A DNA stretch of 64,000 nucleotides from Candidatus Hydrogenedentota bacterium (GTDB lineage: Bacteria > Hydrogenedentota > Hydrogenedentia > Hydrogenedentales > SLHB01), in NCBI GenBank assembly GCA_029552745.1, contig JAKPDK010000070.1:325268-389267 (forward strand), read 5' to 3'. Shown here piece by piece: positions 1,698 to 35,673 of this stretch (positions are counted from its first letter, which is position 1; each line of letters starts with the position of its first letter). The position numbers and the translations under genes are program-made. Below the pieces are notes generated by a model that saw nothing but the letters and a program-made list of their open reading frames with translations, did no database searches and was not told the origin of the DNA.

Positions 1698-3524
1698 CTA
1701 ATTTGCGGAAATAACGAACAGGGCTTCGTCAGCACACAAATTGGGCAATAGGCGAGTGGGGAGGGCGGAACCCTTGGGTCCCAACGGGATTTCCCGCCAA
1801 ATCCTTATGTTGTGATTGAGGCAGAATTCCCGGAAATCACAAATAGAGAGTACGTGGCGGTTCGGCGTATTGTACCAGGAATAAGGTAAGTTTCGCGTTA
1901 CGGGTGCTTTTCCCAGCAGGGTTTTCAGGCGTACCTTCCAAAAACCAAAGTTGGGAAAGCTGACAATACATCGTTTGCCTACGCGCAGCATTTCGTTCAG
2001 AACGAATTCAGGCCTTTCGATGACCTGAAGCGTCATACTGAGAATAACATAATCAAAACTCTGGTTGGGCAACGCAGAAAGTCCTTTATCAATATCAGCT
2101 TGGACGACTGAAACGCCACGCCGCACACACGAGACCACGTTACCTTGGAAAAGTTCCAGTCCCATGCCTTCCACATTTTTCTTTTCTTTCAAGATTTGAA
2201 GCAGGGCGCCATCAGCACATCCTATATCCAGAACGCGGCTACCTTCTTCGACAAGATCGGCAATCATTTCGTAATCGACACGATGACCTTCGTAAATGCT
2301 TTGGGGGCTCACCGGAGGTGGACCGTAATCCGCTTCGCTGTCTGCATCGTAAGGCGAAAAGTCCAACTTTCTCTCGGGCTCGGCTACGTGCTCCAGGAAC
2401 CCACTTATGAGTTTTTTCATGACGCTCTTTTCTAACAGGAATGCGTCGTGCCCATAATTGGATTCTATGTTGCAGTAAGTAACATCCTTTTTTTGTCTCA
2501 TAAGCGCATGAACGATGCTTTCCGACTGATAAGGAGGATATAACCAGTCGGACGTGTAGGAGAGAACCATTACTTTTGCCATGACGCGAGCCATTGCATT
2601 GTCAAGGGATCCATAAGGAGCAGCCAAATCGAAATAATCAATGGCTTTGGTGATATAAAGGTAGCTATTGGCATCGAACCGGTTGACAAACTGTTCCCCC
2701 TGATAGTCCAAGTAGGTTTCTACCGAAAACTCGCTTTCAAAATCATATCGGTAGTTTTGTGTATTACGCAGGGCACGCCCAAACTTAATGCGCATGGATT
2801 CGTCAGACAGGTAGGTGATGTGCGCCAACATTCTTGCGATGGACAGTCCGGTCGATGGGGGTGCCTTGTCGTAATAATCTCCGTGATGAAAGGCAGGATC
2901 GGCTTGGATGGCATGTCGGCCTACGGCATCAAAGGCAATGGCTTGCGGACTGAGCACCGGGGTTGTTGCAATGACGATTGCAGAGCGCACCATATCGGGA
3001 TAGCGGGTCATCCACTCGAGGGTTTGCATTCCCCCCATGGAACCGCCCGCAACACATAATAGTTTTTCGATACCAAGGTGGGCGATCAGTTGGCGCTGGG
3101 CGCGAACCATATCTCCAATGGTGATAATGGGGAAGGTGAGACCAAACGGCCGACCTGTTTCCGGATTGATGCTGCTAGGTCCTGTGGAACCCTTGCACCC
3201 TCCTATTACATTGGAGCAAATCACAAAATAGCGATTGGTGTCGAACCCTTTGTTGGGACCAATCATCATGTCCCACCAGCCGGGTTTTCTATCGGCGGGA
3301 CTGTGATAACCCGCGGCATGCGCATCACCGGACAACGCATGGACGATCAAGATAGCATTGGATTTATCTCGGTTGAGTTCCCCATACGTTTCATACGCGA
3401 GTGTTATGGGACCTAGCTTCCGTCCGCAATCAAGTTCCATCTCGTTTGGCGGATGGGCAAACGTGAAATATTGGGTTTGAACAATTCCTACAGAACCCTC
3501 TTCTTCTGATCGTCTTTTACTCAT
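1698..3524 (-). CDS. metX: homoserine O-acetyltransferase (MetX) fused to a C-terminal MetW-like methyltransferase-fold domain
   Basis: 608 aa. The N-terminal ~380 aa form an alpha/beta hydrolase with the MetX motifs ([27 protein letters not shown]). The C-terminal ~200 aa ([17 protein letters not shown]...[11 protein letters not shown]) match MetW. Confidence 0.85.
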
Positions 3525-3557: not shown

Positions 3558-4760
3558 CTATGCACTTCGCCTTAGTGCTTGATCTAGGTCTTTGATGAGG
3601 TCCTGACAGTCTTCCACGCCGACCGCTAGACGTATCAGGGTATCGGTTATTCCCAGTGCGTATCGTTCTTTTCTTGTGCGATCGTAATAGGTCACGGTTG
3701 CGGGGTGGGTAATTAAAGTTTCCACTCCTCCTAAACTGGGACCTATGAAACACAGTCGAAGACTGTCTAAAAAACGCTTAGCCGTGTGAAGAGTTCCCTT
3801 GATTTCAAACGTTACAACACCTCCAAACCCCTCCATTTGTCGGACGGCGATTTCATGGTGGGGATGGCTTTCTAACCCCGGATAATAGACCCGTTTGATT
3901 CGTGGATGCTTCTCCAGGAACCTTGCGATTTCTAGGGCAGTCGAATTCTGACGTTCCACTCGCAGGGGAAACGTTTTCAACCCTCGTAACAACAGATAAC
4001 AACAATGGGGGTCAATGACTCCCCCTATTGCCTTGTGCAAGGTTCGAATGGTTTCAATTAGCTCCGTCCGCCCAAGAACGGCTCCGGCGAGCAGGTCGTT
4101 GTGGCCTGCAAGGTACTTGGTGCAACTGTGCAAGACTAGGTCAACCCCGAACTCAAGAGGCCGTTGGTTGTACGGAGTGGCAAAGGTCGAGTCGATAAGC
4201 GTTAATACTCCGTGTTTTTTGGCAATATATACTAGTCGTTCCAAATCAAAGATGTTAAGATACGGATTGGTCGGAGACTCAGAAAAAATAAACCGCGTCT
4301 TTGATGTAATTGCATCTTCTAACGCTTTGTAATCGCCAAAAGGAACAATAGTACAACCCACGCCAAACCGCTGCAGGTAGCTACTGCAAAACTCCAAGGT
4401 TTTCTTGTACGCATCGTCCGTGATGACAATATGATCCCCGCTTTGTACCAACGCCAGGATGGAGGTCGTGATCGCGCTCATGCCCGAACCGAACAAAGCA
4501 CAGTCTTCGGCGCCTTCCAAAGCTGCAAGCCGACGCGATGCCACTTGCTCTGTCGGATTTCCGTAGCGTCCGTACTCAAAACGCGCCTTACCATGTTTCG
4601 TATATTCCTCGATATCTTTCGAGTTTTGAAACACATATGTGGCGGTTTGGAATATAGGCGTCGTTATAGAATCAGCGTAACGCTGTCTACCTTCGCCTGC
4701 GTGAACACTTTTTGTGGCAAAACCAGTCTTGTCGCCTCGCTGAATTCGCTGATTTTTCAT
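3558..4760 (-). CDS. PLP-dependent Cys/Met-metabolism enzyme of the cystathionine gamma-synthase / beta-lyase / MetZ family
   Basis: 400 aa. Matches the trans-sulfuration PLP fold (GNPT, SGMAAI-like, HSCTKYLAGH with the PLP lysine). An ATG with a GGGAG RBS lies upstream. Confidence 0.75.
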   Translation of the reverse strand: MKNQRIQRGDKTGFATKSVHAGEGRQRYADSITTPIFQTATYVFQNSKDIEEYTKHGKARFEYGRYGNPTEQVASRRLAALEGAEDCALFGSGMSAITTSILALVQSGDHIVITDDAYKKTLEFCSSYLQRFGVGCTIVPFGDYKALEDAITSKTRFIFSESPTNPYLNIFDLERLVYIAKKHGVLTLIDSTFATPYNQRPLEFGVDLVLHSCTKYLAGHNDLLAGAVLGRTELIETIRTLHKAIGGVIDPHCCYLLLRGLKTFPLRVERQNSTALEIARFLEKHPRIKRVYYPGLESHPHHEIAVRQMEGFGGVVTFEIKGTLHTAKRFLDSLRLCFIGPSLGGVETLITHPATVTYYDRTRKERYALGITDTLIRLAVGVEDCQDLIKDLDQALRRSA

Positions 4761-4864
4761 TGCTACTCCCTGCTTGTTTCATACAGCTTTCTGCTACGGA
4801 ACACGTTGCTACTTTGGCAAAAGCACCAAATTATAGCAGGAAAGCAGCATATCCCACGATCATT

Positions 4865-6181
<1,317 letters not shown>

Positions 6182-8895: not shown

Positions 8896-9390
8896 GTGAT
8901 CATTTACACCGATGGGGGGTGTGTGCCTAACCCAGGACTGGGCGGATGGGCAGCCATTTTGTGTTGCGGGGAACATGTCAAAGAAATTAGCGGTGGCCAA
9001 AAGGATACGACAAATAACCGCATGGAACTTACAGCCGCCGTCAATGCACTTTCGGCTCTGAAGCGGCCGTGTCGTGTTCGTGTTTTTACGGATTCCGAAT
9101 ATTTGCGAAGAGGTGTGACCGAATGGTTGCCGCTGTGGCAGGAACGAGGTTGGAAACGCAAAGGCGGTGAGTTAAAGAATATAGATTTATGGCAACAACT
9201 GACGCATTTGGTGCAGCGGCATGAGGTCCAGTGGAACTGGGTCCGGGGACACGCGGGAGATCCACTAAATGAGCGGTGTGATTTTTTGGTTAGGCAAGCT
9301 ATAGAAATGGAACGCGAGAAAGAGGAAATCTCGCCAGCAAAAATAGATAGTTCCGCAAAGCAATCGCGATCTAAGGATAATTCACCGTGA
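8896..9390 (+). CDS. rnhA: ribonuclease HI
   Basis: IIYTDGGC...NNRMEL...FTDSEYL...WVRGHAG..NE.CD gives the RNase H catalytic D/E/D/D pattern. GTG start. Confidence 0.85.
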   Translation: MIIYTDGGCVPNPGLGGWAAILCCGEHVKEISGGQKDTTNNRMELTAAVNALSALKRPCRVRVFTDSEYLRRGVTEWLPLWQERGWKRKGGELKNIDLWQQLTHLVQRHEVQWNWVRGHAGDPLNERCDFLVRQAIEMEREKEEISPAKIDSSAKQSRSKDNSP

Positions 9391-19689: not shown

Positions 19690-22600
19690 TCAAGAAGAAG
19701 GGCTCTCATAAGGAGTTGCAACCGCGGCCTCTTGATTTTCCTCAGAACGAGTTAAACGTGCATGGGCAAGGTCTTCGATGATCACATAAACGGCGGGCAC
19801 AATAACCAAAGATATTAAGGTTGCAATCAAGATGCCGTAGCCGAGTGAAAGCGCCATTGGAATAAGGAATTTTGCTTGTCTTGACGTCTCAAATATCATA
19901 GGCGCCAACCCACCAAAGGTTGTCAATGTGGTTAACATGATTGGCCTGAAACGCTGGATTGCAGCTTCGTGGATGGCTTCCCGGTGATTGATTTTTCTCT
20001 CTTCTTGCAATCGGTTGGCAAAATCGATCATTACTAGAGAGGCATTTACTACCACCCCTGCTAACGCCACAATCCCAAAGATACTTGGTATCGATAGGTC
20101 ATATCCCATGAGTAAGTGACCAAGCAAGGCACCGACAATCCCGAAAGGAATGCTCAGCATCACCACAAGCGGCTGGGTGTAGCTGCGGAATGGGATAGCA
20201 AGTAGAGCATAGATTGCCAGCAATGCCAAAAGAAATGTGACTTTCAAACTTGCCATACTATCGCGGATTTGGGCTTGTTGTCCCTCAAAACTATAGCTTA
20301 AGCCCGGATGATTCTTGACAAACTGGGGTAAAACATTATCGGATAAGTCCGCAAGCACCTCATTTAACTTTCTTCTCGGGGTAATATCTGCGGTTACCTG
20401 AATGACCCGTCGCCCATTTCTTCGTTCAATCGTAGTATAAGCCCGATCACGCTGAAACATGGCGATTTCTCGAAATGGAACGAATGCCCCGGATGGGGTT
20501 CTGATAAGCAGATTTTCGATGGTGTGTTCGGAGGAACGTTCTGCTTTGGGGAGACGCACCATTACTTTTATTTCGTTTCTGCCTCGCTGCTGGCGGAGCA
20601 CTTCAGCCCCATAGAACGCATGGCGAAGTTGCCGTGCCACTTCCCGCGGTGTCAACCCCAAACTTCTGCCCTCAGGTTTCAACATAAAATTGATCTGGGG
20701 CTTGCCTGGACGGAACCCGTCATCTACATCAGACACGCCAGGGTAGGAAGCCAGAATTGCAGCAAGTTCTGGGCCGGCTTTCTCTAACATGCTCATGTCT
20801 CGGTGGCTCAACTCAACAGTTATGGGGCGAGCACCGCCGCCGGGTCCACCCGACTCCGAACTGAATCGTAGTGATTTTACTCCAGGTACTTCGCCTGTTT
20901 CGGCGCGCCAACGTTGAACAAATTCCTCTGTGCCCATGATTTTTTTTCGGATTTCAGGTTCGGGCAGCTGGACGCGCACTCTGCCCGCATGGCTTCCCCC
21001 TTGCCCAATATCAGCGATGATCCCTTGACAAAGCTCGGGGTGGCCTGATTGCTCGACAACTCGCAGCGCGGCTTCTTGAATCTTGTCAACAATAGCCCTG
21101 GTCTGCTGGACAGGGGCGCCATAGGGCAGTTCCACGCGAGCGTCAGCAAAATCGGATTCTACTATGGGGAATTGTTGAAATCCCATTCTGCCGCTCATGG
21201 CATAGGAGACGGATAGCGCGAGAGAAGCAAGAGCCAGTGCGATGCAGAGATATCGGTGACGAATCACCATCCATAGGAAGGGGCCGTATATATCGCGGAC
21301 CCAATGCATGAATTTTCGGCTGAACCATTGTTGCTTTTCATGCAACCAACGGTTGATGCCTTGGCGGCGGCGTTCTTTAGCATGTCCCAGCTGAGCGGGG
21401 AGGATGTAGAGGCATTGTACCAATGATATTAGAAAAACAACGGTAATCACTACGGGGATCATCCTGAAGATCTTGCCTAGGAACCCTGGGATAAAATAAA
21501 TGGGAACGAAGGAAGCGATGTTGGTTAAGATACTGTACGTGACTGCTGTACTCACCTCCTCCGAGGCATATCTGGCAGCTTCCAGTAATTTCATCCCTTT
21601 TTGGTGGTAATGATATACATTCTCTCCAACCACGATTCCCACATCGACCACCATGCCCAACGCCAGGATATAGGCAAATAAAGAAACCATGTTGATTGTG
21701 ACATCCGTAGCGGGCAGAAGAAGAAACGAACCCAAGAACGCTATTGGGATGCTGGTCATGACCCAAAATGCAAGACGTGCCTCCAAAAAAAGCCCCAAAA
21801 TGATGAGCACCAATAGGAGCCCTTCTGCGCCGTTCTTAAGCAAGAGCGTCAGACGTTGTTTATAAATATCAGATTGATCGTTGTAGACAGAGACCGATAC
21901 GCCCGAAGGCAGGGTGGTTTGGAATTCTTCGAGAATTTTTCTTGCAGCTCGGGAAACTTGGATCGGCGTTTCTTTGCCCACCCGAAATACATCCAGCAAA
22001 ACAGCTGGTTTGCCATTGTACAAGGAGTAACGGTCGGTTTCGGCAAAACTATCATTAATGGAGGCGATATCGTTTAGGAGTTGTTGTGTTCCCTTTGGTG
22101 TGTTTAATATGGGCAACTTAGCGAACTGTTCTCCGTAATCTCGTCGCTCTTTGGAGCGTACCAATACCTCGCCACTTTCGGTCTTCACTCCACCGGACGG
22201 GATGTCTTGAGAGGCAACCGCCAAGCGCGATGCGATTTCCCCTAACGTCAAATTATACTGTCGGAGGGCATTCTCTGGTACCTCGATACTAATTTCCAGG
22301 GGTGGAAGGCCCTCCACATCCACTTGGGTAATGTCAGGTGATTGTATCAACCAGTCCCGGAGCTGCTCAGCAAGCTGGTGAAGGCTGGTGTCAGGGAGGT
22401 CGCCGTAAATGACAGCAGTCAATACCTCGCGACGGCGTGTGTCAATGCGTACTTGGGGCTCTTCAGCGTCTTCGGGGAAAGTGACGATACGGTCCACTTC
22501 GCTTTTCACATCCTGTCCAAGTTGTTGAATGTCGACTCCGACGAGCGCTTCAACTGTGACGGCGCCTCCGCCTTCGCGTGCCATAGAGGTCACTTCGTGA

Positions 22601-22872
22601 ACGCCATCAACATTTTGAACTGCTTCTTCAATGGCAAGGAGGATGGAACTTTCCACTTCTTCCGGGCTTGCCCCAGGATAAGCGACGGTGACCGTAACCG
22701 TGTCGGGCACGATATCTGGAAAGACTTCCTGTTTCATGTTGAGAGCTGTTATCAAGCCCCCAGCAAGAAACGTTAACATCAAAAGATTTGCAGCGACCGG
22801 ATGCCCTGCCATCCATGCCACTGCACCTCTTCGGGGGGTGTTGTCTTGAGGGTCGGTACCCATTATGCTCAC
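19690..22872 (-). CDS. efflux RND transporter permease (AcrB/HAE1-like)
   Basis: 1060 aa with 12-TM RND architecture and large periplasmic loops. Confidence 0.9.
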   Translation of the reverse strand: MSIMGTDPQDNTPRRGAVAWMAGHPVAANLLMLTFLAGGLITALNMKQEVFPDIVPDTVTVTVAYPGASPEEVESSILLAIEEAVQNVDGVHEVTSMAREGGGAVTVEALVGVDIQQLGQDVKSEVDRIVTFPEDAEEPQVRIDTRRREVLTAVIYGDLPDTSLHQLAEQLRDWLIQSPDITQVDVEGLPPLEISIEVPENALRQYNLTLGEIASRLAVASQDIPSGGVKTESGEVLVRSKERRDYGEQFAKLPILNTPKGTQQLLNDIASINDSFAETDRYSLYNGKPAVLLDVFRVGKETPIQVSRAARKILEEFQTTLPSGVSVSVYNDQSDIYKQRLTLLLKNGAEGLLLVLIILGLFLEARLAFWVMTSIPIAFLGSFLLLPATDVTINMVSLFAYILALGMVVDVGIVVGENVYHYHQKGMKLLEAARYASEEVSTAVTYSILTNIASFVPIYFIPGFLGKIFRMIPVVITVVFLISLVQCLYILPAQLGHAKERRRQGINRWLHEKQQWFSRKFMHWVRDIYGPFLWMVIRHRYLCIALALASLALSVSYAMSGRMGFQQFPIVESDFADARVELPYGAPVQQTRAIVDKIQEAALRVVEQSGHPELCQGIIADIGQGGSHAGRVRVQLPEPEIRKKIMGTEEFVQRWRAETGEVPGVKSLRFSSESGGPGGGARPITVELSHRDMSMLEKAGPELAAILASYPGVSDVDDGFRPGKPQINFMLKPEGRSLGLTPREVARQLRHAFYGAEVLRQQRGRNEIKVMVRLPKAERSSEHTIENLLIRTPSGAFVPFREIAMFQRDRAYTTIERRNGRRVIQVTADITPRRKLNEVLADLSDNVLPQFVKNHPGLSYSFEGQQAQIRDSMASLKVTFLLALLAIYALLAIPFRSYTQPLVVMLSIPFGIVGALLGHLLMGYDLSIPSIFGIVALAGVVVNASLVMIDFANRLQEERKINHREAIHEAAIQRFRPIMLTTLTTFGGLAPMIFETSRQAKFLIPMALSLGYGILIATLISLVIVPAVYVIIEDLAHARLTRSEENQEAAVATPYESPSS

Positions 22873-22873
22873 C

Positions 22874-24142
22874 TCATCGTTGTTGGCGCGTCGTGGTGGT
22901 GTCGGATGGGGAGTTTTCCCGGACTCTCAGCGGCATACCCTGTACGGGAGCAATGAGACTGCTGGTCACCACTTTGTCATTGTCGCGAAGTCCATCGGAG
23001 ACCAAAACAAAGTCTGGGCTGCTCCAAACAATGGATAAGGAGCGAATATCTAATGTGCTGTCCTCAGACATAACCCAGACTTTGTTTCCCTCTCGTACTG
23101 CCGATCTCTGAAGTTTCACCACGTTAGGAACCTCTTGTCCCAAAAGTTCTACTCGAACATAAGATTTAAGAATCAACGGATGTTGATTCTCGTTGGTGTT
23201 AAGTTCGAGAGGGTCCTGAACCTCAACTAACACGCGTGCCATTCTGCCTTCATCAAGGTCCGGCAAGAGCCGAATGATTTCACCCATTCGGAAGACGTCA
23301 GAGCCCCATGCCGCCGGATAATAAATCCTTGCCGGAGAACCTTTTTTGTTCTTCGCATCGGGGATCTGTAGCCATTTAAGTTCATCTACAGGAACAGATG
23401 TATCAACCCAAAACGTGTCTGTTCCAACGGCAGTTGCCAAAGCCGTACCCGGAGAGACATAGCTGCCTAAGTCCGCGCTCCTTGTCTGGATAACACAGTT
23501 GAAAGGAGCTTTGAGGACCGTGCGCTCCAAATCTAACTGGGCTTTTTCCAGTGCCGCTTGGGCAGCATCCACACTAGCCTTTGCGGACGCCAGTTGGGGT
23601 TTTCTTAGCATAAGCTCCTCGTCTTCAGTGTCGCCTGACTTTCCCACCAGTTCATATTCTTTCTGAGCGACGGCTTGCTGCCCCATTTCGAGTTTTAGGG
23701 TTGCTTCTGCTCGGGCAAGGTTACTCTGCTGTTGGCGCAAGGCAAGTTGGTAATCTGCCTCTTCAATTCGCAATATTTCTTCGTTCTCTTGGAAAAAGCC
23801 TCCCGGCATGAAATGCGGGGACACCGCTACCACTCTACCCGGTACCAGAACGGCAAGGCGTATTTCGCGTGACGGCGTGACAGTGCCCATCGCTTGGACA
23901 GCGATTTGTTCTGTTCCCATATGGACTGGGGTGACCTCGACCAAGGTGGCTTCCACTTCGGAAGGTCTTCGTTGAGTCTTGGGTGGATTGGCGAGCCAGT
24001 AGTAGCTTAGTGCAATGCTTGCGGACAATATGACCAGTCCTACGACGGTCCTAAGAAGCCAGCCTAGTCCCCGTCGCAGTCGGTTGCCCGGATTTGTTTG
24101 CGTAACGGTGCTTTTTGTACTTTCACTGTCTAGTGTTTTCAT
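22874..24142 (-). CDS. efflux RND transporter periplasmic adaptor (membrane fusion protein)
   Basis: N-terminal TM, coiled-coil and HlyD-like barrel segments. Adjacent to the RND pump. Confidence 0.85.
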   Translation of the reverse strand: MKTLDSESTKSTVTQTNPGNRLRRGLGWLLRTVVGLVILSASIALSYYWLANPPKTQRRPSEVEATLVEVTPVHMGTEQIAVQAMGTVTPSREIRLAVLVPGRVVAVSPHFMPGGFFQENEEILRIEEADYQLALRQQQSNLARAEATLKLEMGQQAVAQKEYELVGKSGDTEDEELMLRKPQLASAKASVDAAQAALEKAQLDLERTVLKAPFNCVIQTRSADLGSYVSPGTALATAVGTDTFWVDTSVPVDELKWLQIPDAKNKKGSPARIYYPAAWGSDVFRMGEIIRLLPDLDEGRMARVLVEVQDPLELNTNENQHPLILKSYVRVELLGQEVPNVVKLQRSAVREGNKVWVMSEDSTLDIRSLSIVWSSPDFVLVSDGLRDNDKVVTSSLIAPVQGMPLRVRENSPSDTTTTRQQR

Positions 24143-24148
24143 ATAGAC

Positions 24149-25861
24149 CTAATCGTTTCCTTTGACGGTTTCGGAAGACGAAGATTGCCGTTGGTTATCG
24201 CCCGGGTTGTCTTTTTTGGATTCATTCTGTGAGATCATACTTAAGTCATCCATCATCCAGGTTCCACCTAGCGCCAAGGCAAGGCGAACGCGGATATTTA
24301 AATACGCCAAGTTTGCCTGTACTTGCTTTCTCTCTAGGCTTTGGAGTTGCGTCAGCGCAGAAATCACGGGGAGATAGTCGTTTAGCCCTTTTCGGTAGCG
24401 TTCAAAAGCCTGGGCATGTGCCGTTCTCGCAGCCGCCAGTTCGCGTTGGAGAGATTCTAAGTATTCCCGCTGTTTTCGCTCCTGAACCAGGGCGCTTTCT
24501 ACTTCTTTTATTGCTGTCAGTACGGTTTGTTCGTAAGCGGCAAGCCGTTCTTTTGCCACAGCTCGCGTGCGGAATACTTCCGCTTTTCTTCTACCGGCAT
24601 CGAAAATTGGGTTAGTGAGGCTCGCCGCCAAGGTGGCTAGCCAATTGTTCAAGATCAATTCTGTTGTATCGGCTCCATACGAGGCCGATGCGGTTAGTCG
24701 TATACTGGGAAGTCGGTCTGCTCGGGCAGCGCTCACTCTCCAATCGGCGGCTTGAAGTTGTAGTCCTCTTGCCCGTACGTCAGGCCTTTTTGCCAGTAAC
24801 TCGGCAGGCAGTCCTACGTCAGGCATCGGGCCTGCCTCGGGGAAGCCGTCTTGTGCTATCTTCAGGTCGGTAGTCGGTTGTCGTCCCAATAATACGGCGA
24901 GGTCTTGTTCCGCTGTTTTAAGATTTGCTTCCAAGCCCGGGATTAGCGATTCTGTTTGTGCAACAGCTTGCCGCTGTTGTAGGACATCGAGCGCCGTTGC
25001 CCTGCCTTTTTGAAAACGTAGCTCGATAAGATCAAGAGTTGTCTTGTTTAACTCCAGCTGCCGACGAACCAAATTTAATTCCTGACGTAATGCCAAAACG
25101 CCCAACCATTGAGATACTACTTGCCCAGACAAAGTGAGCATAGCCGCATAGGTGTCCTCTTGGGCGGCGGCATAATCTAGGCTTGCTGCACGGTTTTGCG
25201 CTCGAACTCGTCCCCATAAATCTGCCTCGTAACTACTTGCCAAGCCGAAGCGATAGGTGTGAGTGATCAGAGTGCTTTCTGCGGAAGGTGGAGCTTCCGT
25301 CAAGGTTTGCAAGGCATTGAGACTTGACTGCGCCGAGCGCAACGAGTTTGCGGCAGCTTGGAGAGGGTCCTGTGTCTCAATGGGAGAGAGGTTTTTTATT
25401 AACGTATTCAGGGCATCAACTTTCTTAGAGGCATCTTGCCACGGCGGGATATCTACTCCGGTGTCGATGTGGCGACGTGTTGCAGAGAAATCTCCGGTTA
25501 GATTCAATGTAGGGAATAAGCCCGATCGCGCTTGACGGGCTAACATTTCAGACTGTTCCAATCGTGCCAGAATTTGCTTTAAAGTTAAGTTTCCGCTTAT
25601 GGCACTCGTTACCAATTCGTCAAGCTCAGGGGAATGGAATTGTTTCCACCATTTGTCAGGTTGTGGCGTGGAAGGTTCATAGAAAGAGAAAGATTCGGGA
25701 AGAAGTGCCTGGTTCAACTGCCTCTTGGGCGGAGGAAAGGAGCTACAAGACGTCAGCCAGACCGCAGAAACGAATATAATGATAATGAGCGTCCACGCCG
25801 GCATCTTTTCTGGAACCTTTTTTCTTCGTGGAGCTGCCGCTCGTGCATTAATGCGCATCAT
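24149..25861 (-). CDS. efflux outer membrane factor lipoprotein (NodT/TolC family)
   Basis: Lipoprotein signal (LTSCSS) and duplicated OEP coiled-coil/barrel repeats. Confidence 0.85.
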   Translation of the reverse strand: MMRINARAAAPRRKKVPEKMPAWTLIIIIFVSAVWLTSCSSFPPPKRQLNQALLPESFSFYEPSTPQPDKWWKQFHSPELDELVTSAISGNLTLKQILARLEQSEMLARQARSGLFPTLNLTGDFSATRRHIDTGVDIPPWQDASKKVDALNTLIKNLSPIETQDPLQAAANSLRSAQSSLNALQTLTEAPPSAESTLITHTYRFGLASSYEADLWGRVRAQNRAASLDYAAAQEDTYAAMLTLSGQVVSQWLGVLALRQELNLVRRQLELNKTTLDLIELRFQKGRATALDVLQQRQAVAQTESLIPGLEANLKTAEQDLAVLLGRQPTTDLKIAQDGFPEAGPMPDVGLPAELLAKRPDVRARGLQLQAADWRVSAARADRLPSIRLTASASYGADTTELILNNWLATLAASLTNPIFDAGRRKAEVFRTRAVAKERLAAYEQTVLTAIKEVESALVQERKQREYLESLQRELAAARTAHAQAFERYRKGLNDYLPVISALTQLQSLERKQVQANLAYLNIRVRLALALGGTWMMDDLSMISQNESKKDNPGDNQRQSSSSETVKGND

Positions 25862-26546
25862 GCGGATCTCCTGTCAAGGGTTCTTGGAGCCTTGTCCCCG
25901 TTGTCTCTGACTCTAGGCGACGACGTATTTCGGCTATCCCGGCGAGGGAGAATTGAACAATATGCTGAGTAAGGCGTTCCGTGTCCTTTTCGTCAAATTT
26001 CCAGAGGGCATGTTTTCTTTTTTTCCAGGGCGGTCCCTGCGCCATAAAGCATTGAGATATAAGGCTCATTTCGCAGAGTTCGACATACTCGTTTGTCGCC
26101 TTGGGTCCGAGCAGTTCCTGAATGACGGAGCGGGTGTATGTCCTCATTTTTTGCATCCACGAGGCAATCGCGTGGTCTAGGATACCTGTGGGATTCATGA
26201 TTTCTCGCATTCGAATTCTATGGAAGTTGCTTAACTCTCCGCGGTCGGCTTTTCTCAAAAGAAGAGAGCGGACATTTCCTTCGAGGCGTACATCAGCGGG
26301 GGCATTGAGCGGCACTCCCCCATCTATCGGATAGAGTTCGTCCATTTGGGTGGCGAGGTAATCCCATGTAGCGGCATAGAGGGCTTCTTTCGAGCCAAAA
26401 TGGTAGTTAATTGCGGCGGTATTTACATGCGCAAGGCGGCAAATTTCCTCGTGTGTGGCTCCGCGGTAACCTTTTTCGCCGAACACGACACAGGCCGCTT
26501 GGAGGATTTTCTGCCGGGTATTTTCGCCGTCTTTTCGGATACGCAT
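25848..26546 (-). CDS. TetR/AcrR family transcriptional regulator
   Basis: N-terminal TetR HTH (TRQKILQAACVVFGEKGYRGATHEEICRLAHVNTAAINYHFGSKEAL). Confidence 0.85.
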   Translation of the reverse strand: MRIRKDGENTRQKILQAACVVFGEKGYRGATHEEICRLAHVNTAAINYHFGSKEALYAATWDYLATQMDELYPIDGGVPLNAPADVRLEGNVRSLLLRKADRGELSNFHRIRMREIMNPTGILDHAIASWMQKMRTYTRSVIQELLGPKATNEYVELCEMSLISQCFMAQGPPWKKRKHALWKFDEKDTERLTQHIVQFSLAGIAEIRRRLESETTGTRLQEPLTGDPHDAH

Positions 26547-26749: not shown

Positions 26750-28243
26750 ATGAATATACGGTATTTGTTAAAGGTACTTGGTTACTTTTCATGGGCGACC
26801 GCCCCTTTGATGTTGCCGGCTTTGATAGTCTCCTTTTACTACAAGGAAGGCCAAGCGGCATTGGCGCTCCTCTTTTCCGCCGTTGTTTCTATTCTTGTGG
26901 GGAGTTTTCTCTATCGAATGGGGCGAGGTGCTCCAAATCGTTTTTACCAGCGTGAAACACTGGGCGTTGTGGCGCTTGCATGGATACTTGTGGCGGGCTT
27001 GGGCGCACTGCCGTTTATTTTTTCGGGGGTTCTGGGTCCCGTAGACGCCTACTTTGAATGTATGTCGGGATTTACAACTACGGGGTCCAGCGTTTTCGGA
27101 TTGAGCCATTTTCAGCATACACCAAAGGCGATCATGTTTTGGCGGGCATTTACCCACTGGGTAGGGGGTATGGGAATTATTGTGTTGTTTCTTGCCGTGC
27201 TCCCTTATCTTGGCGTTGGTGGGAAACAGCTCTTTAAGTCAGAATCGCCGGGTCCCGATCCCCGTGAACTTACTCCCCGCATACGTGACACGGCAGCAAT
27301 CTTATACACCATATATCTAGGCCTCACGATTTTGGAAATAGCCGCGTTGATGTTCGCCGGAATGAATTGGTTTGATGCAACATGCCATACATTTGCGACA
27401 TTGTCCGGTGGAGGTTTCTCGACTCGTTTTAACAGTGTAGGAGAGTTTAAGAGTCCCGTTATTGATGTCATAGTAATTTTCTTTATGATTTGCGGCGCCA
27501 CCAATTTTGCTCTCTATTACAGTATGCTCAAAGGAAACTGGAAGGCGCTATTCATGGATACGGAGTGGCGCGCTTATATTTTTATCCTGTTAACAGCTAC
27601 GCTCTTGGTGACTCTAAACTTATGTGGTTGGTTTGGGGCAGGGGTAGTGAGAGCAGATGGACCTGTCAAAACATACGATAATCCGTTGGAAGCTTTGAGG
27701 TATGCTGGTTTCCAAGTTGCGTCGATGATGACAACAACAGGCTTTACCACGGATGATTTTGATCGTTGGCCTGATCTCTCCAGAGAGTTGCTGATTACAG
27801 TCATGTTTATAGGAGGCTGTGCCGGTTCTACGAGTGGGGGGATTAAGGTTATCCGGATTATGATGTTATTGAAGATGGTTTACTGGCGTTTGGAGAAATC
27901 TTTCCGTACTCGTACTGTAAGAGTGTTACGTATAGCTGGGGAGCCGGTTGAAGAGGGCGTTCAACAGAACGTTTATGGCTTTGTTGTCTTGTATTTGGGT
28001 TGGGCGATATTGGGTACCTTTGTTATGACCGCTTTAGGATTGCCCCTCCTTTCAGCTTTTACTTCAGTGGCTGCTACACTCAACACCACGGGTCCTGGGC
28101 TCGAAAAAGTAGGCGCATCGATGAACTTTGCGGAGATACCCGCCCTTGGCAAGCTATTTCTTTCTTTATCGATGGTGCTTGGCCGCTTGGAGTTGTTTAG
28201 CGTGTTAGTCCTTTTCGTGCCTGGATTTTGGAAAAAGGAGTAG
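26750..28243 (+). CDS. trkH: TrkH/KtrB family K+ uptake transporter subunit
   Basis: 497 aa with repeated M-P-M segments and glycine selectivity-filter-like motifs (GFTTTG, TTTGF). Confidence 0.85.
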   Translation: MNIRYLLKVLGYFSWATAPLMLPALIVSFYYKEGQAALALLFSAVVSILVGSFLYRMGRGAPNRFYQRETLGVVALAWILVAGLGALPFIFSGVLGPVDAYFECMSGFTTTGSSVFGLSHFQHTPKAIMFWRAFTHWVGGMGIIVLFLAVLPYLGVGGKQLFKSESPGPDPRELTPRIRDTAAILYTIYLGLTILEIAALMFAGMNWFDATCHTFATLSGGGFSTRFNSVGEFKSPVIDVIVIFFMICGATNFALYYSMLKGNWKALFMDTEWRAYIFILLTATLLVTLNLCGWFGAGVVRADGPVKTYDNPLEALRYAGFQVASMMTTTGFTTDDFDRWPDLSRELLITVMFIGGCAGSTSGGIKVIRIMMLLKMVYWRLEKSFRTRTVRVLRIAGEPVEEGVQQNVYGFVVLYLGWAILGTFVMTALGLPLLSAFTSVAATLNTTGPGLEKVGASMNFAEIPALGKLFLSLSMVLGRLELFSVLVLFVPGFWKKE

Positions 28244-28260: not shown

Positions 28261-29253
28261 TCATACTTGTCGTTTCCCTGTCTCGATCTCGTTGACCAGA
28301 GTTCTCAACGTTGTCAACGCCGTTTCGGGGAATCGCCATTCTTGAATCTTTGGTTCCGTCAACAGGTTTTTCAACTGGGGCAAGACAAGCATTTCTGCGG
28401 CTTGCTCGCTGGTTAACGACCGGGCAACAAAGCTTTCTTCGGTAAAGTTTTCAAAAAAACTTTTCAGGCCACGGCGAGCATCTCCTCCGACAGCTCCGAA
28501 ATCTTGGCCGTAGATGTGCATCGCAAAACTATAATCCGCATAGCTTCCAACACGGACGTTTTTTCCGGCTTTTTCCGCGATTTTTTCCGCGATAACACTT
28601 TGAAGGAAGGTGATAGCAATAACGTTGTCGGGCCAGGCTTTATAGAGGTCTCTCGAGCGCCACACCGTATTCATATTGAGTACCCAGTTGCCTTGGTGAT
28701 CTTCGGGACAACGTAATTGAATTTCCCGCAGGCAAGGGACATCTTCCTTCAAAAAGACGTCAATATCTGGGACCGCGGTAGTGGCAACTGCACGCCGGGT
28801 GTAGGGTGTTTTGGAAATGCGGTCAATCGCGCGTGCCACTTGATCAACGGTGCTGCCGTCCCATGCTGGGTGGCTGAAAAGGCGTTGGTGATACGTGTAG
28901 GGCCATTCTTTTGCAGAGAGTTCCCCGTGCACCGCTTCGCGGAGTTTTTCTATGGGGACAACCATGTGATCTTTGACCCCCATGATTTCGGCGATGTAAG
29001 TGCCGATTTCACAAAAGGAGATGGGCGGATACCGGGGTTGGGAAAAGGGGTCTTTGACTTCAATGAGCACTCGGGCATCGCGGCTGGGCGGATCGATATA
29101 TTTTCCGGATTCGTCTTTTCTGTCATATTCGGTTCGCATCGGAAAACCCTGTTCCCAAACCGCCTTCATTGCACGGAAGTAAGCTTGAGGGATGTTTTCA
29201 GCTACAACGTGCAGCGTTGGGAGCCTGCCTTCTGAAAAGTCTTTTGTGTCCAT
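28261..29253 (-). CDS. thymidylate synthase (ThyA) family protein, divergent
   Basis: Fold landmarks align to ThyA: TPYTRRAVATTAVP (the DSRRI region), the catalytic-Cys PC in DVPCLREIQL, VWRSRDLYKAWPDN (the QRSCD..G.PFN region), and HIYG (the HLY region). At 330 aa it is longer than ThyA and has a divergent N-terminus. Confidence 0.6.
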   Translation of the reverse strand: MDTKDFSEGRLPTLHVVAENIPQAYFRAMKAVWEQGFPMRTEYDRKDESGKYIDPPSRDARVLIEVKDPFSQPRYPPISFCEIGTYIAEIMGVKDHMVVPIEKLREAVHGELSAKEWPYTYHQRLFSHPAWDGSTVDQVARAIDRISKTPYTRRAVATTAVPDIDVFLKEDVPCLREIQLRCPEDHQGNWVLNMNTVWRSRDLYKAWPDNVIAITFLQSVIAEKIAEKAGKNVRVGSYADYSFAMHIYGQDFGAVGGDARRGLKSFFENFTEESFVARSLTSEQAAEMLVLPQLKNLLTEPKIQEWRFPETALTTLRTLVNEIETGKRQV

Positions 29254-33693: not shown

Positions 33694-33927
33694 TTACAAC
33701 CATTTAATTACAGCAAATGTGACAAAGAAAGCCCCGATTCCTAAAGCTTTTTGCCATCCTTTTGGCGAACGAGGATCCGTGCCTCCTTTTCCTGAGAAAA
33801 GTCCCTCAATCCCTTTTTTTTGCAGATAGTCGCTTTCTTGCGCGTGACAATCCTCGGCCAACCACAACATGAGAAGGCAGCAAAACGAAAGGAGCAATAC
33901 CGTTGCCATGATCTTTTGTCTAGTCAT
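33694..33927 (-). CDS. small membrane-anchored protein (signal peptide plus C-terminal TM), hypothetical
   Basis: The ORF track gives 129 aa to 34083. The internal ATG at 33927 is preceded by AGAAAGG and starts a signal-peptide-like MTRQKIMATVLLLSFCCLLMLWLA. Confidence 0.4.
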   Translation of the reverse strand: MTRQKIMATVLLLSFCCLLMLWLAEDCHAQESDYLQKKGIEGLFSGKGGTDPRSPKGWQKALGIGAFFVTFAVIKWL

Positions 33928-34145
33928 TGCACTCGCCTTTCTTAACGCCTTTTTCAGTGAGCACTCGCAATCCGCCTCGTCTATAGTATTGTACTTTCCA
34001 AAGTGAGAAAATTGCAAGCGGTTCTTTTCATTGCTTTTTGTGGCAGCTTCAGCAAAATCGAAGAAACGCCAAACTTCATTCATGAGAGTATGTGATTCAA
34101 TCCTACGAAGAAATTGGAGGTCGATTCAAGAAGACCAACACTTGT

Positions 34146-34174
34146 TTGACTTGTGAGTGCATACTTGATAAACT
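34146..34174 (+). promoter_or_regulatory. sigma70-like promoter candidate (TTGACT-N17-TAAACT)
   Basis: -35 TTGACT at 34146-34151, a 17-nt spacer, and -10 TAAACT at 34169-34174. It lies 14 nt upstream of the ATG at 34188. Confidence 0.3.
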
Positions 34175-34187
34175 GTGATAAAAGGGG

Positions 34188-34397
34188 ATGGAGTTCCCCG
34201 GAATTGCCGAGTGGCTGATAACTCCTGTTGCGTGGGTTCACGTGACAGGAGTTTTGTTTTTATCTAATTCCTGGCTTTTGTATAGGACGTCGAGTTCGTC
34301 TGGTCTTTCCGTCAGAGGACGGTTTGAACTGTACCTGATTTTGTCAGCCCGCGACGGTAGAACGGGAGTAAGTCAACGTGTCGCAGGAACCTTTTGA
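34188..34397 (+). other. leader region with a short ORF (69 codons in the ORF track) containing an intrinsic terminator; candidate attenuator
   Basis: The ATG at 34188 has an AAAGGGG RBS. The terminator hairpin sits within codons 12-22. The ORF end overlaps the GTG start of the next gene. Confidence 0.35.
34222..34264 (+). terminator. Rho-independent terminator
   Basis: Stem CTCCTGT-TG-CGTG(GGTT)CACG-TG-ACAGGAG followed by TTTTGTTTTTATC. The upstream GGAGTT (34190-34195) can pair instead with AACTCC (34220-34225), giving a competing anti-terminator. Confidence 0.6.
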
Positions 34398-34863
34398 AAA
34401 TCATCCGAAGGAAGTCATTGAAAACCACAGAAGAGTAATTTCTATCACCTTGGCGCTTTTGGATGAACGTCTCTGCAATATTGAGGCGTGGATATTAGGT
34501 CGAGAAGAAAAGGGTGTCCTATACAAAGAGGAAAACAAACTTACAGGGGAGCAACGGGAGGAGATCCGAAATGAAATCAACGCCATTCGAAACATCTTGG
34601 AGGAATTGAAAAGCACCCTGGATTTATTTCCACGAACCGTGGATTCGACCACTACTATTCGGGGAGCCTGTTACGCCGTCATGGAACCCCTATGCGAATT
34701 GGACCCAAAGCACCTAGCAGGGTATGGCAGACCGAGTGATTTTATGTTGTCCTATTTTGAACCGCGGCGCACAGAGATGTTGGCGCATATCGAGAAAGTG
34801 CTGCAGGCTGTAAGCCGTGGAAATGTTTCGGAAAAAGGGGGCAAACATGAGCCGAGAACGTGA
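34378..34863 (+). CDS. hypothetical protein (predicted all-helical)
   Basis: 161-aa ORF with a GTG start after GGGAG. Its 3' end overlaps the next gene's start by 17 nt. Confidence 0.5.
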   Translation: MSQEPFENHPKEVIENHRRVISITLALLDERLCNIEAWILGREEKGVLYKEENKLTGEQREEIRNEINAIRNILEELKSTLDLFPRTVDSTTTIRGACYAVMEPLCELDPKHLAGYGRPSDFMLSYFEPRRTEMLAHIEKVLQAVSRGNVSEKGGKHEPRT

Positions 34864-35527: not shown

Positions 35528-35673
35528 CTCATATTTATGAGCGCCGCCGCGCTTCACCACCCTTTGTCCGTCTTAAAACGGTCTTGGTAAGACTCGACTT
35601 TGATTCCATCCACTCTTTCATAAGCAGGCTGAACGATTCCCAAAAAGGAAAAACCTATAAGGAGACTACTGTA

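Follow-up and report, generated by a model that had tools for sequence, protein, structure and literature searches.

What kind of RNA leader precedes an operon for a helical hypothetical protein, a Cys/His protein and a cation:proton antiporter, and to which signal does it respond? The question is raised by a 64,000-nucleotide stretch of DNA (the window) from Candidatus Hydrogenedentota, to our knowledge a phylum represented only by genomes assembled without cultures. An earlier note, made from the letters alone, had described here a promoter, a short open reading frame (ORF) and an intrinsic terminator faced by a competing pairing, and had proposed attenuation governed by translation or by a ligand, perhaps a cation. 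The analysis presented here indicates, with high confidence, that positions 34146–34261 comprise a promoter followed by a fluoride riboswitch with an intrinsic-terminator expression platform, operating as a transcriptional ON switch. The features of the locus are collected in Table 1.

Table 1. Positions of the leader elements and downstream genes, numbered from the first nucleotide of the window
Feature	Positions	Strand	Details
Sigma-70-type promoter	34146–34174	+	TTGACT 34146–34151, 17-nt spacer, TG-extended TAAACT 34169–34174
Fluoride riboswitch aptamer (crcB motif, RF01734)	34175–34234	+	Covariance-model match
Helix P1	34184–34187 (GGGG) with 34196–34199 (CCCC)	+	Consensus alignment
69-codon ORF	34188–34397	+	ATG 34188; overlaps GTG 34378; judged spurious
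Pseudoknot	34190–34195 (GGAGUU) with 34220–34225 (AACUCC)	+	Consensus alignment
Helix P3	34206–34208 (GCC) with 34213–34215 (GGC)	+	Consensus alignment
Intrinsic terminator (expression platform)	34220–34261	+	5′ arm 34220–34234, loop 34235–34238, 3′ arm 34239–34253, U-tract to 34261
Shine-Dalgarno GGGAG (34364–34368) and GTG start (34378) of first regulated gene	34364–34380	+	Read directly
F161, 161-aa uncharacterised helical-bundle family	34378–34863	+	No Pfam model
DUF6062 protein, 226 aa	34847–35527	+	PF19538
Cation:proton antiporter, Na_H_Exchanger fold, 413 aa	35674–36915	+	PF00999; start ATG 35674

The leader belongs to the fluoride riboswitch class

The leader, in which the earlier note had recognised no known riboswitch class, gave the sole Rfam hit across the 64 kb at gathering thresholds. 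Positions 34175–34234 of the plus strand matched RF01734, the crcB motif or fluoride riboswitch, over the full length of the model (positions 1–64 of 64), with 46.3 bits (gathering score 34) and an E-value of 1.2e-9 for the whole window. Some relatives score higher (55–58 bits), and the linker between P1 and P3 reads AAUUGCC in the window against AACCGCC in the consensus. Related leaders upstream of homologous operons also exceeded the Rfam threshold (L001 and L002, 38.2 bits; L003, 55.0 bits; L005, 57.7 bits); these loci were retrieved through the downstream proteins, and the comparative set consists of metagenome contigs. Class match, helices, pseudoknot and the overlap of terminator and aptamer are all present in the window and are conserved in related loci, and the leader carries, as far as sequence can tell, every defining feature of RF01734. 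The class was described in 2010–2012, and the leader is an ordinary member of this already-known class of regulator, detectable with the public Rfam model. By analogy with the class, the ligand of the aptamer would be the fluoride anion rather than a cation.

Folding and covariation of the aptamer

Folding, which the earlier note had put forward as a check, recovered P1, P3 and the terminator together in the minimum-free-energy structure. The 96 nt from 34175 to 34270 gave −40.2 kcal/mol, compared with −23.2 ± 3.2 kcal/mol for dinucleotide shuffles (z = −5.3), and 0/200 shuffles did as well. The complementarity of GGAGTT to AACTCC, which the same note had picked out, is indeed present and is the aptamer pseudoknot.

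Covariation was assessed in an alignment of nine aptamers lying beside these gene families (the window, L001, L003, L005, L007, L011, two from L012, and L014). Across P1, the pseudoknot and P3, standard pairs occupied 96.6% of cells, compared with 35–66% when the partners were slid by 1–3 columns. Compensatory changes were found in 6/13 pairs, and the observed values were reached by 0/500 column shuffles. P1 was 97% paired with two covarying pairs, and P3 89% paired with three. The pseudoknot was paired in all nine aptamers, with one pair alternating between U-A and C-G; the window's A at 34220, a G in the consensus, belongs to this switching pair. The unpaired core segments GAUGG (in the P1 loop) and CUGAU (ahead of the pseudoknot strand) are both present in the window, and their columns are invariant among the related aptamers. 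A terminator scan also returned a minus-strand hairpin at 34184–34199, GGGGAACTCCATCCCC followed by TTTTATCACA, which simply mirrors P1, and no gene on that strand ends at this position.

Promoter and predicted transcription start

The TTGACT-N17-TAAACT promoter proposed in the earlier note is present, and it recurs in three related leaders. In a consensus scan it had 9/12 matches, with TG ahead of the −10 hexamer, in a region where promoter-like sites are not enriched (9 found, 10.6 expected). The leaders of L001, L003 and L005 have these hexamers too, likewise 17 nt apart and equally far from the aptamer and P1, with differing spacer sequences. The pattern in the four related leaders is a −35 of TTGAC type and, beyond a 17-nt spacer, a TAnnCT −10, with the aptamer starting approximately 9 nt later. 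Transcription is predicted to start at about 34181–34183, 1–3 nt ahead of helix P1.

The terminator shares part of its 5′ arm with the pseudoknot

The intrinsic terminator and the pairing that competes with its 5′ arm, both described in the earlier note, lie where that note had placed them. The stem at 34220–34253 is followed directly on its 3′ side by TTGTTTTTAT, and, at 15 pairs (7 G-C), exceeds in length every other terminator-like stem found in the scanned 10 kb. What had been read as a 'tg/tg internal loop' is in fact a U-G and a G-U wobble pair, so that the stem is continuous. The 5′ arm opens with six bases (34220–34225) that are also the 3′ strand of the pseudoknot, and the two folds are therefore mutually exclusive. 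An equivalent aptamer-overlapping terminator is found in L001, L003 and L005, and the 5′ arm begins AACUCC in four related leaders. Comparison of orthologous leaders, in which loss of the hairpin would have counted against attenuation, thus finds it kept in relatives.

In the mechanism that we propose, when fluoride is absent the AACUCC tail would be free, and the 15-bp terminator hairpin would form during transcription; RNA polymerase would then stop at the U-tract near 34261, releasing an RNA of approximately 80 nt. When fluoride is present, the aptamer would capture the ion by way of a cluster of Mg2+ ions, as fluoride is bound in the published crystal structures of the class. Bound fluoride would lock AACUCC (34220–34225) into the pseudoknot with GGAGUU (34190–34195), withholding 6/15 bases of the terminator 5′ arm, so that the terminator could not nucleate. 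Read-through would allow transcription of three genes, coding for F161 (helical, 161 aa), the Cys/His protein of family DUF6062 and the cation:proton antiporter. The direction of regulation is predicted here from the riboswitch class. Terminators commonly overlap the crcB motif, such that ligand binding inhibits the terminator and raises expression, making an ON switch (PMC2864571), and one account of transcriptional fluoride riboswitches describes them as consisting of a pseudoknotted aptamer and, after it, a platform formed by an intrinsic terminator (PMC11077080). The match to the fluoride class and the overlap with the terminator together support the ligand-controlled version of the attenuation that had been suggested for the downstream operon.

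The terminated product might be considered a gene in its own right. Promoter and strong terminator bound a stable, structured RNA of approximately 80 nt, and other classes offer known cases of terminated riboswitch transcripts that act in trans, so that a stand-alone small RNA could be imagined to act in trans, besides or instead of in cis. We consider this very unlikely: there is no sign of a trans target, the element in relatives always lies directly 5′ of a co-oriented operon, and in some relatives, L014 among them, the aptamer reaches right to the start codon, so that a separate small-RNA terminator would not fit.

The short ORF is a by-product of the aptamer

More improbable still is attenuation by a leader peptide, in which ribosomes translating the 69-codon ORF from ATG 34188 would choose between anti-terminator and terminator. 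The ORF does exist, overlapping the GTG at 34378 as the earlier note had described (34188–34397), and it spans the terminator; its first four codons are moreover conserved in relatives. Its standing as a coding feature did not survive comparison. In L001, an orthologous leader whose downstream protein is 86% identical to that of the window, the frame opened by the aptamer ATG is 15 codons long, and in L005 it is 4 codons, while in L003 the frame happens to continue, in phase, into the gene that follows. The codons common to the window and its relatives are the first four alone (MEFP/A), and these are conserved aptamer bases. The G-rich sequence proposed as a ribosome-binding site fares no better as part of a translation start: GGGG (34184–34187) abuts the ATG with nothing between them and serves as the 5′ arm of P1, and the ATG itself falls within the invariant GAUGG, so that both are conserved nucleotides of the aptamer. 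The predicted transcription start lies merely 6–8 nt or so upstream of the ATG, which would leave a leader of about that length, and the ORF had no Pfam or NCBIfam match.

Because it is not conserved, has no spacer between the Shine-Dalgarno-like sequence and the ATG, begins so close to the transcription start and matches no Pfam or NCBIfam family, the ORF is not taken as a coding feature; we judge it a chance by-product, neither gene nor leader peptide. The comparison of orthologous leaders that favours the hairpin counts against conservation of the ORF, and the leader-peptide reading was rejected on the differing lengths of the frame (69 codons in the window, 15 in L001, 4 in L005).

The regulated genes

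Around the Shine-Dalgarno sequence of the first regulated gene, L001 has kept the block CGGTAGAACGGGAGTAAGTCRACGTG, and the remainder of the 113-nt spacer diverges. The first gene encodes a protein with no Pfam or NCBIfam family, here named F161, for which an exhaustive HMMER search recovered 282 cluster representatives at E ≤ 1e-3. Its AlphaFold model, based on a 51-sequence alignment, is a confident helical bundle (pLDDT 91.3); Foldseek gave no significant neighbour for it, the top hits being ferritins at E 0.66, and the best profile match among PDB sequences was Dps (E 0.028).

The second protein matched PF19538 with 94.5 bits (cut-off 27) over profile positions 10–239 of 243. Its start is taken as ATG 34847, not GTG 34817, since homologues and the NCBI record (226 aa) agree on the former. 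In a seven-sequence alignment, C24, C27, C62, H65, C117, C120, C154 and H157 were invariant, and these residues form an internal duplication of CxxC...(~35 aa)...CxxH (C24/C27/C62/H65 and C117/C120/C154/H157), a pattern that suggests two metal sites. The predicted model, of moderate confidence (pLDDT 68.8), had no structural match.

The 146-nt gap between the DUF6062 and antiporter genes (35528–35673) is non-coding and of the same length in L001, and no terminator-like site was reported in it. The antiporter scored 108.2 bits against PF00999 (gathering threshold 26.2) and 92 bits, below the 238 cut-off, against the NCBIfam CPA2 subfamily model. A 413-aa orthologue was found, and the window antiporter and its riboswitch-controlled counterpart in L014 share 46% identity. 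The most typical cargo of the class is missing from the operon, with no fluoride exporter gene found within the ORFs scanned: a profile search of the 64-kb window gave no homologue of CrcB, and CLC was not found in a partial Pfam survey of 30 large ORFs reaching up to approximately 52 kb of the window. The association of fluoride riboswitches with antiporters is already known. According to one account, Na+/H+ antiporters are next in frequency, among the classes of riboswitch-associated gene, after fluoride exporters, and they help restore pH when influx of HF acidifies the cytoplasm (PMC11139923).

The antiporter as last gene of the operon is also what lends some appeal to a riboswitch sensing a cation such as Na+, Li+ or Mg2+, as the earlier note had supposed, a reading no more credible than the leader peptide, given that the RF01734 match implies fluoride, that all signature nucleotides of the fluoride class are present, that relatives carry the same aptamer ahead of CrcB fluoride channels and enolase, and that a permissive Rfam scan of 33900–34600 (E ≤ 10), after which the candidate was rejected, returned zero matches to cation-riboswitch models, the hits being Fluoride and a noise-level mir-155.

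Several other features of the window were recorded. Upstream of the leader on the minus strand, a 129-aa ORF (33694–34083) is probably a gene of just 77–81 aa (roughly 33694–33927), the product of which has an apparent N-terminal hydrophobic segment and a C-terminal hydrophobic tail, has no Pfam match, and is kept at the same position in L001 and L003. Further away lie an RND efflux operon (19690–26546, minus strand: a TetR/CecR-type regulator, an outer-membrane factor, a membrane-fusion protein and an AcrB-type pump), a TrkH-type cation transporter (26750–28243, plus strand), a 330-aa protein with a weak partial match to thymidylate synthase (28261–29253, minus strand; E 2e-10, residues 119–253), which may be a divergent relative, and, from approximately 50023 onward, a gene for V-type ATPase subunit I, probably the first of a V-ATPase operon.

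F161 and DUF6062 recur in fluoride-riboswitch neighbourhoods

Homologues of the regulated genes adjoin CrcB, DUF190, enolase, MutS-like and Usp genes, together with further RF01734 hits. The arrangements include CrcB-DUF190-DUF6062 (L007 and L008), Enolase-CrcB-DUF190/CBS-MFS-...-DUF6062-F161 (L010), riboswitch-CrcB-DUF190-F161 (L011), riboswitch-F161-...-MFS-dynamin-like GTPase-MutS-like (L012) and riboswitch-antiporter-Usp-F161 (L014).

A metagenome scan seeded with DUF6062 alone yielded 44 loci (234 kb), among which some six pairs are near-identical, so that the effective numbers are somewhat lower than the counts given here. Aptamers were sought in these loci with an nhmmer profile and a regular expression, followed by an Rfam check; the profile and expression replaced a custom covariance model because MAFFT had misaligned P3. 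At least one fluoride aptamer was present in 24/44 loci, with 30 aptamers in total, and the aptamer lay upstream on the same strand in 19/44 loci, or in 13/21 of those with more than 1.5 kb of upstream sequence. The Rfam check of 14 loci gave 17 hits above threshold, in 12 of them. A homologous antiporter was found in 22/44 loci, F161 in 13, DUF190 in 8 and CrcB in 6. Overall, F161 and DUF6062 were neighbours in 16 loci; both gene orders occurred, and the genes often overlapped. No relatives of DUF6062 were found in GTDB representative genomes, and a literature search by name found no mention of it.

Dozens of metagenome loci thus place F161 and DUF6062 beside fluoride riboswitches, CrcB, DUF190 and enolase, a recurrence that is modestly new. 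Their adjacency in either order, with frequent overlap, suggests a joint function for the two proteins. Instead of travelling as passengers, they may have a direct part in fluoride tolerance, for example in protecting metals or cofactors or in controlling the antiporter. We put forward, tentatively and as a possibility more open to doubt than the assignment of the leader, that F161, DUF6062 and a particular antiporter lineage form an undescribed, recurrent fluoride-response module, the soluble pair of which may act directly in tolerance.

Some of the related loci are unusual in their own right. In L003 (2167–7080) and L004, the riboswitch cargo comprises a dynamin-like GTPase, enolase, a 155-aa F161 homologue and DUF6062. 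The flanks of these loci are as in the window (response-regulator/GGDEF, small membrane protein, GHMP kinase, DegT aminotransferase, MFS and GH2), and their antiporter is a 121-aa C-terminal remnant, 72% identical to the C-terminus of the window antiporter. L012 has back-to-back fluoride riboswitches in divergent transcription (4694–4768, minus strand; 4844–4910, plus strand), one facing a 905-aa protein with enolase domains and the other an F161 homologue, behind which come MFS, dynamin-like and MutS-like genes. On some contigs, multiple fluoride aptamers and multiple DUF6062 paralogues occur inside 10 kb: there are three aptamers in L032 and three DUF6062 paralogues in L007. L036 has aptamers at 2450–2521 (minus strand) and 4861–4926 (plus strand), with sites matched by the regular expression alone near 3362–3437 and 9095–9173. 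A variant core in this locus (GGAGAUGAGGCUCGUCC...), ahead of two DUF6062 copies, matched the regular expression and was absent from the nhmmer and Rfam results.

For annotation, the leader is corrected to one with neither leader peptide nor cation sensor, and with predicted fluoride-induced expression. For the leader itself little changes, as it is a routine member of its class, and the two uncharacterised families of the operon are the sole point of moderate interest. Their neighbourhoods give a concrete functional lead for both, arising in a Candidatus Hydrogenedentota metagenome-assembled genome and in dozens of metagenome loci.

Comparison with known systems

Amino-acid leader-peptide attenuators of the trp and his type share with the window a promoter-proximal terminator and a competing upstream pairing. 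However, the window lacks a conserved leader ORF, a usable ribosome-binding site and regulatory codons, and its competing pairing is an aptamer pseudoknot rather than a hairpin under the control of ribosomes. The Na+ and Li+ riboswitch candidates (the DUF1646 and nhaA-I motifs) sit upstream of cation transporters, and the window leader resembles them in its position upstream of a cation:proton antiporter; unlike them, it fits the fluoride model, and neither motif was matched at E ≤ 10.

From the crcB leader of Bacillus cereus, a transcriptional fluoride riboswitch, the window leader shows no difference in kind. The differences are minor: P3 has 3 bp with a GAGU loop, the closing pair of the pseudoknot is U-A and not C-G (at the covarying position), and the operon carries two uncharacterised proteins and no fluoride exporter. 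The two leaders have in common a match along the whole covariance model, P1, P3, a pseudoknot that joins the loop of P1 to the 3′ tail, GAUGG and CUGAU as conserved segments, and an intrinsic terminator with a 5′ arm that overlaps the pseudoknot's 3′ strand. The window leader is also like other members of the class in its placement, in the 5′ untranslated region of a gene class, the Na+/H+ antiporters, that one account lists among those associated with fluoride riboswitches (PMC11139923).
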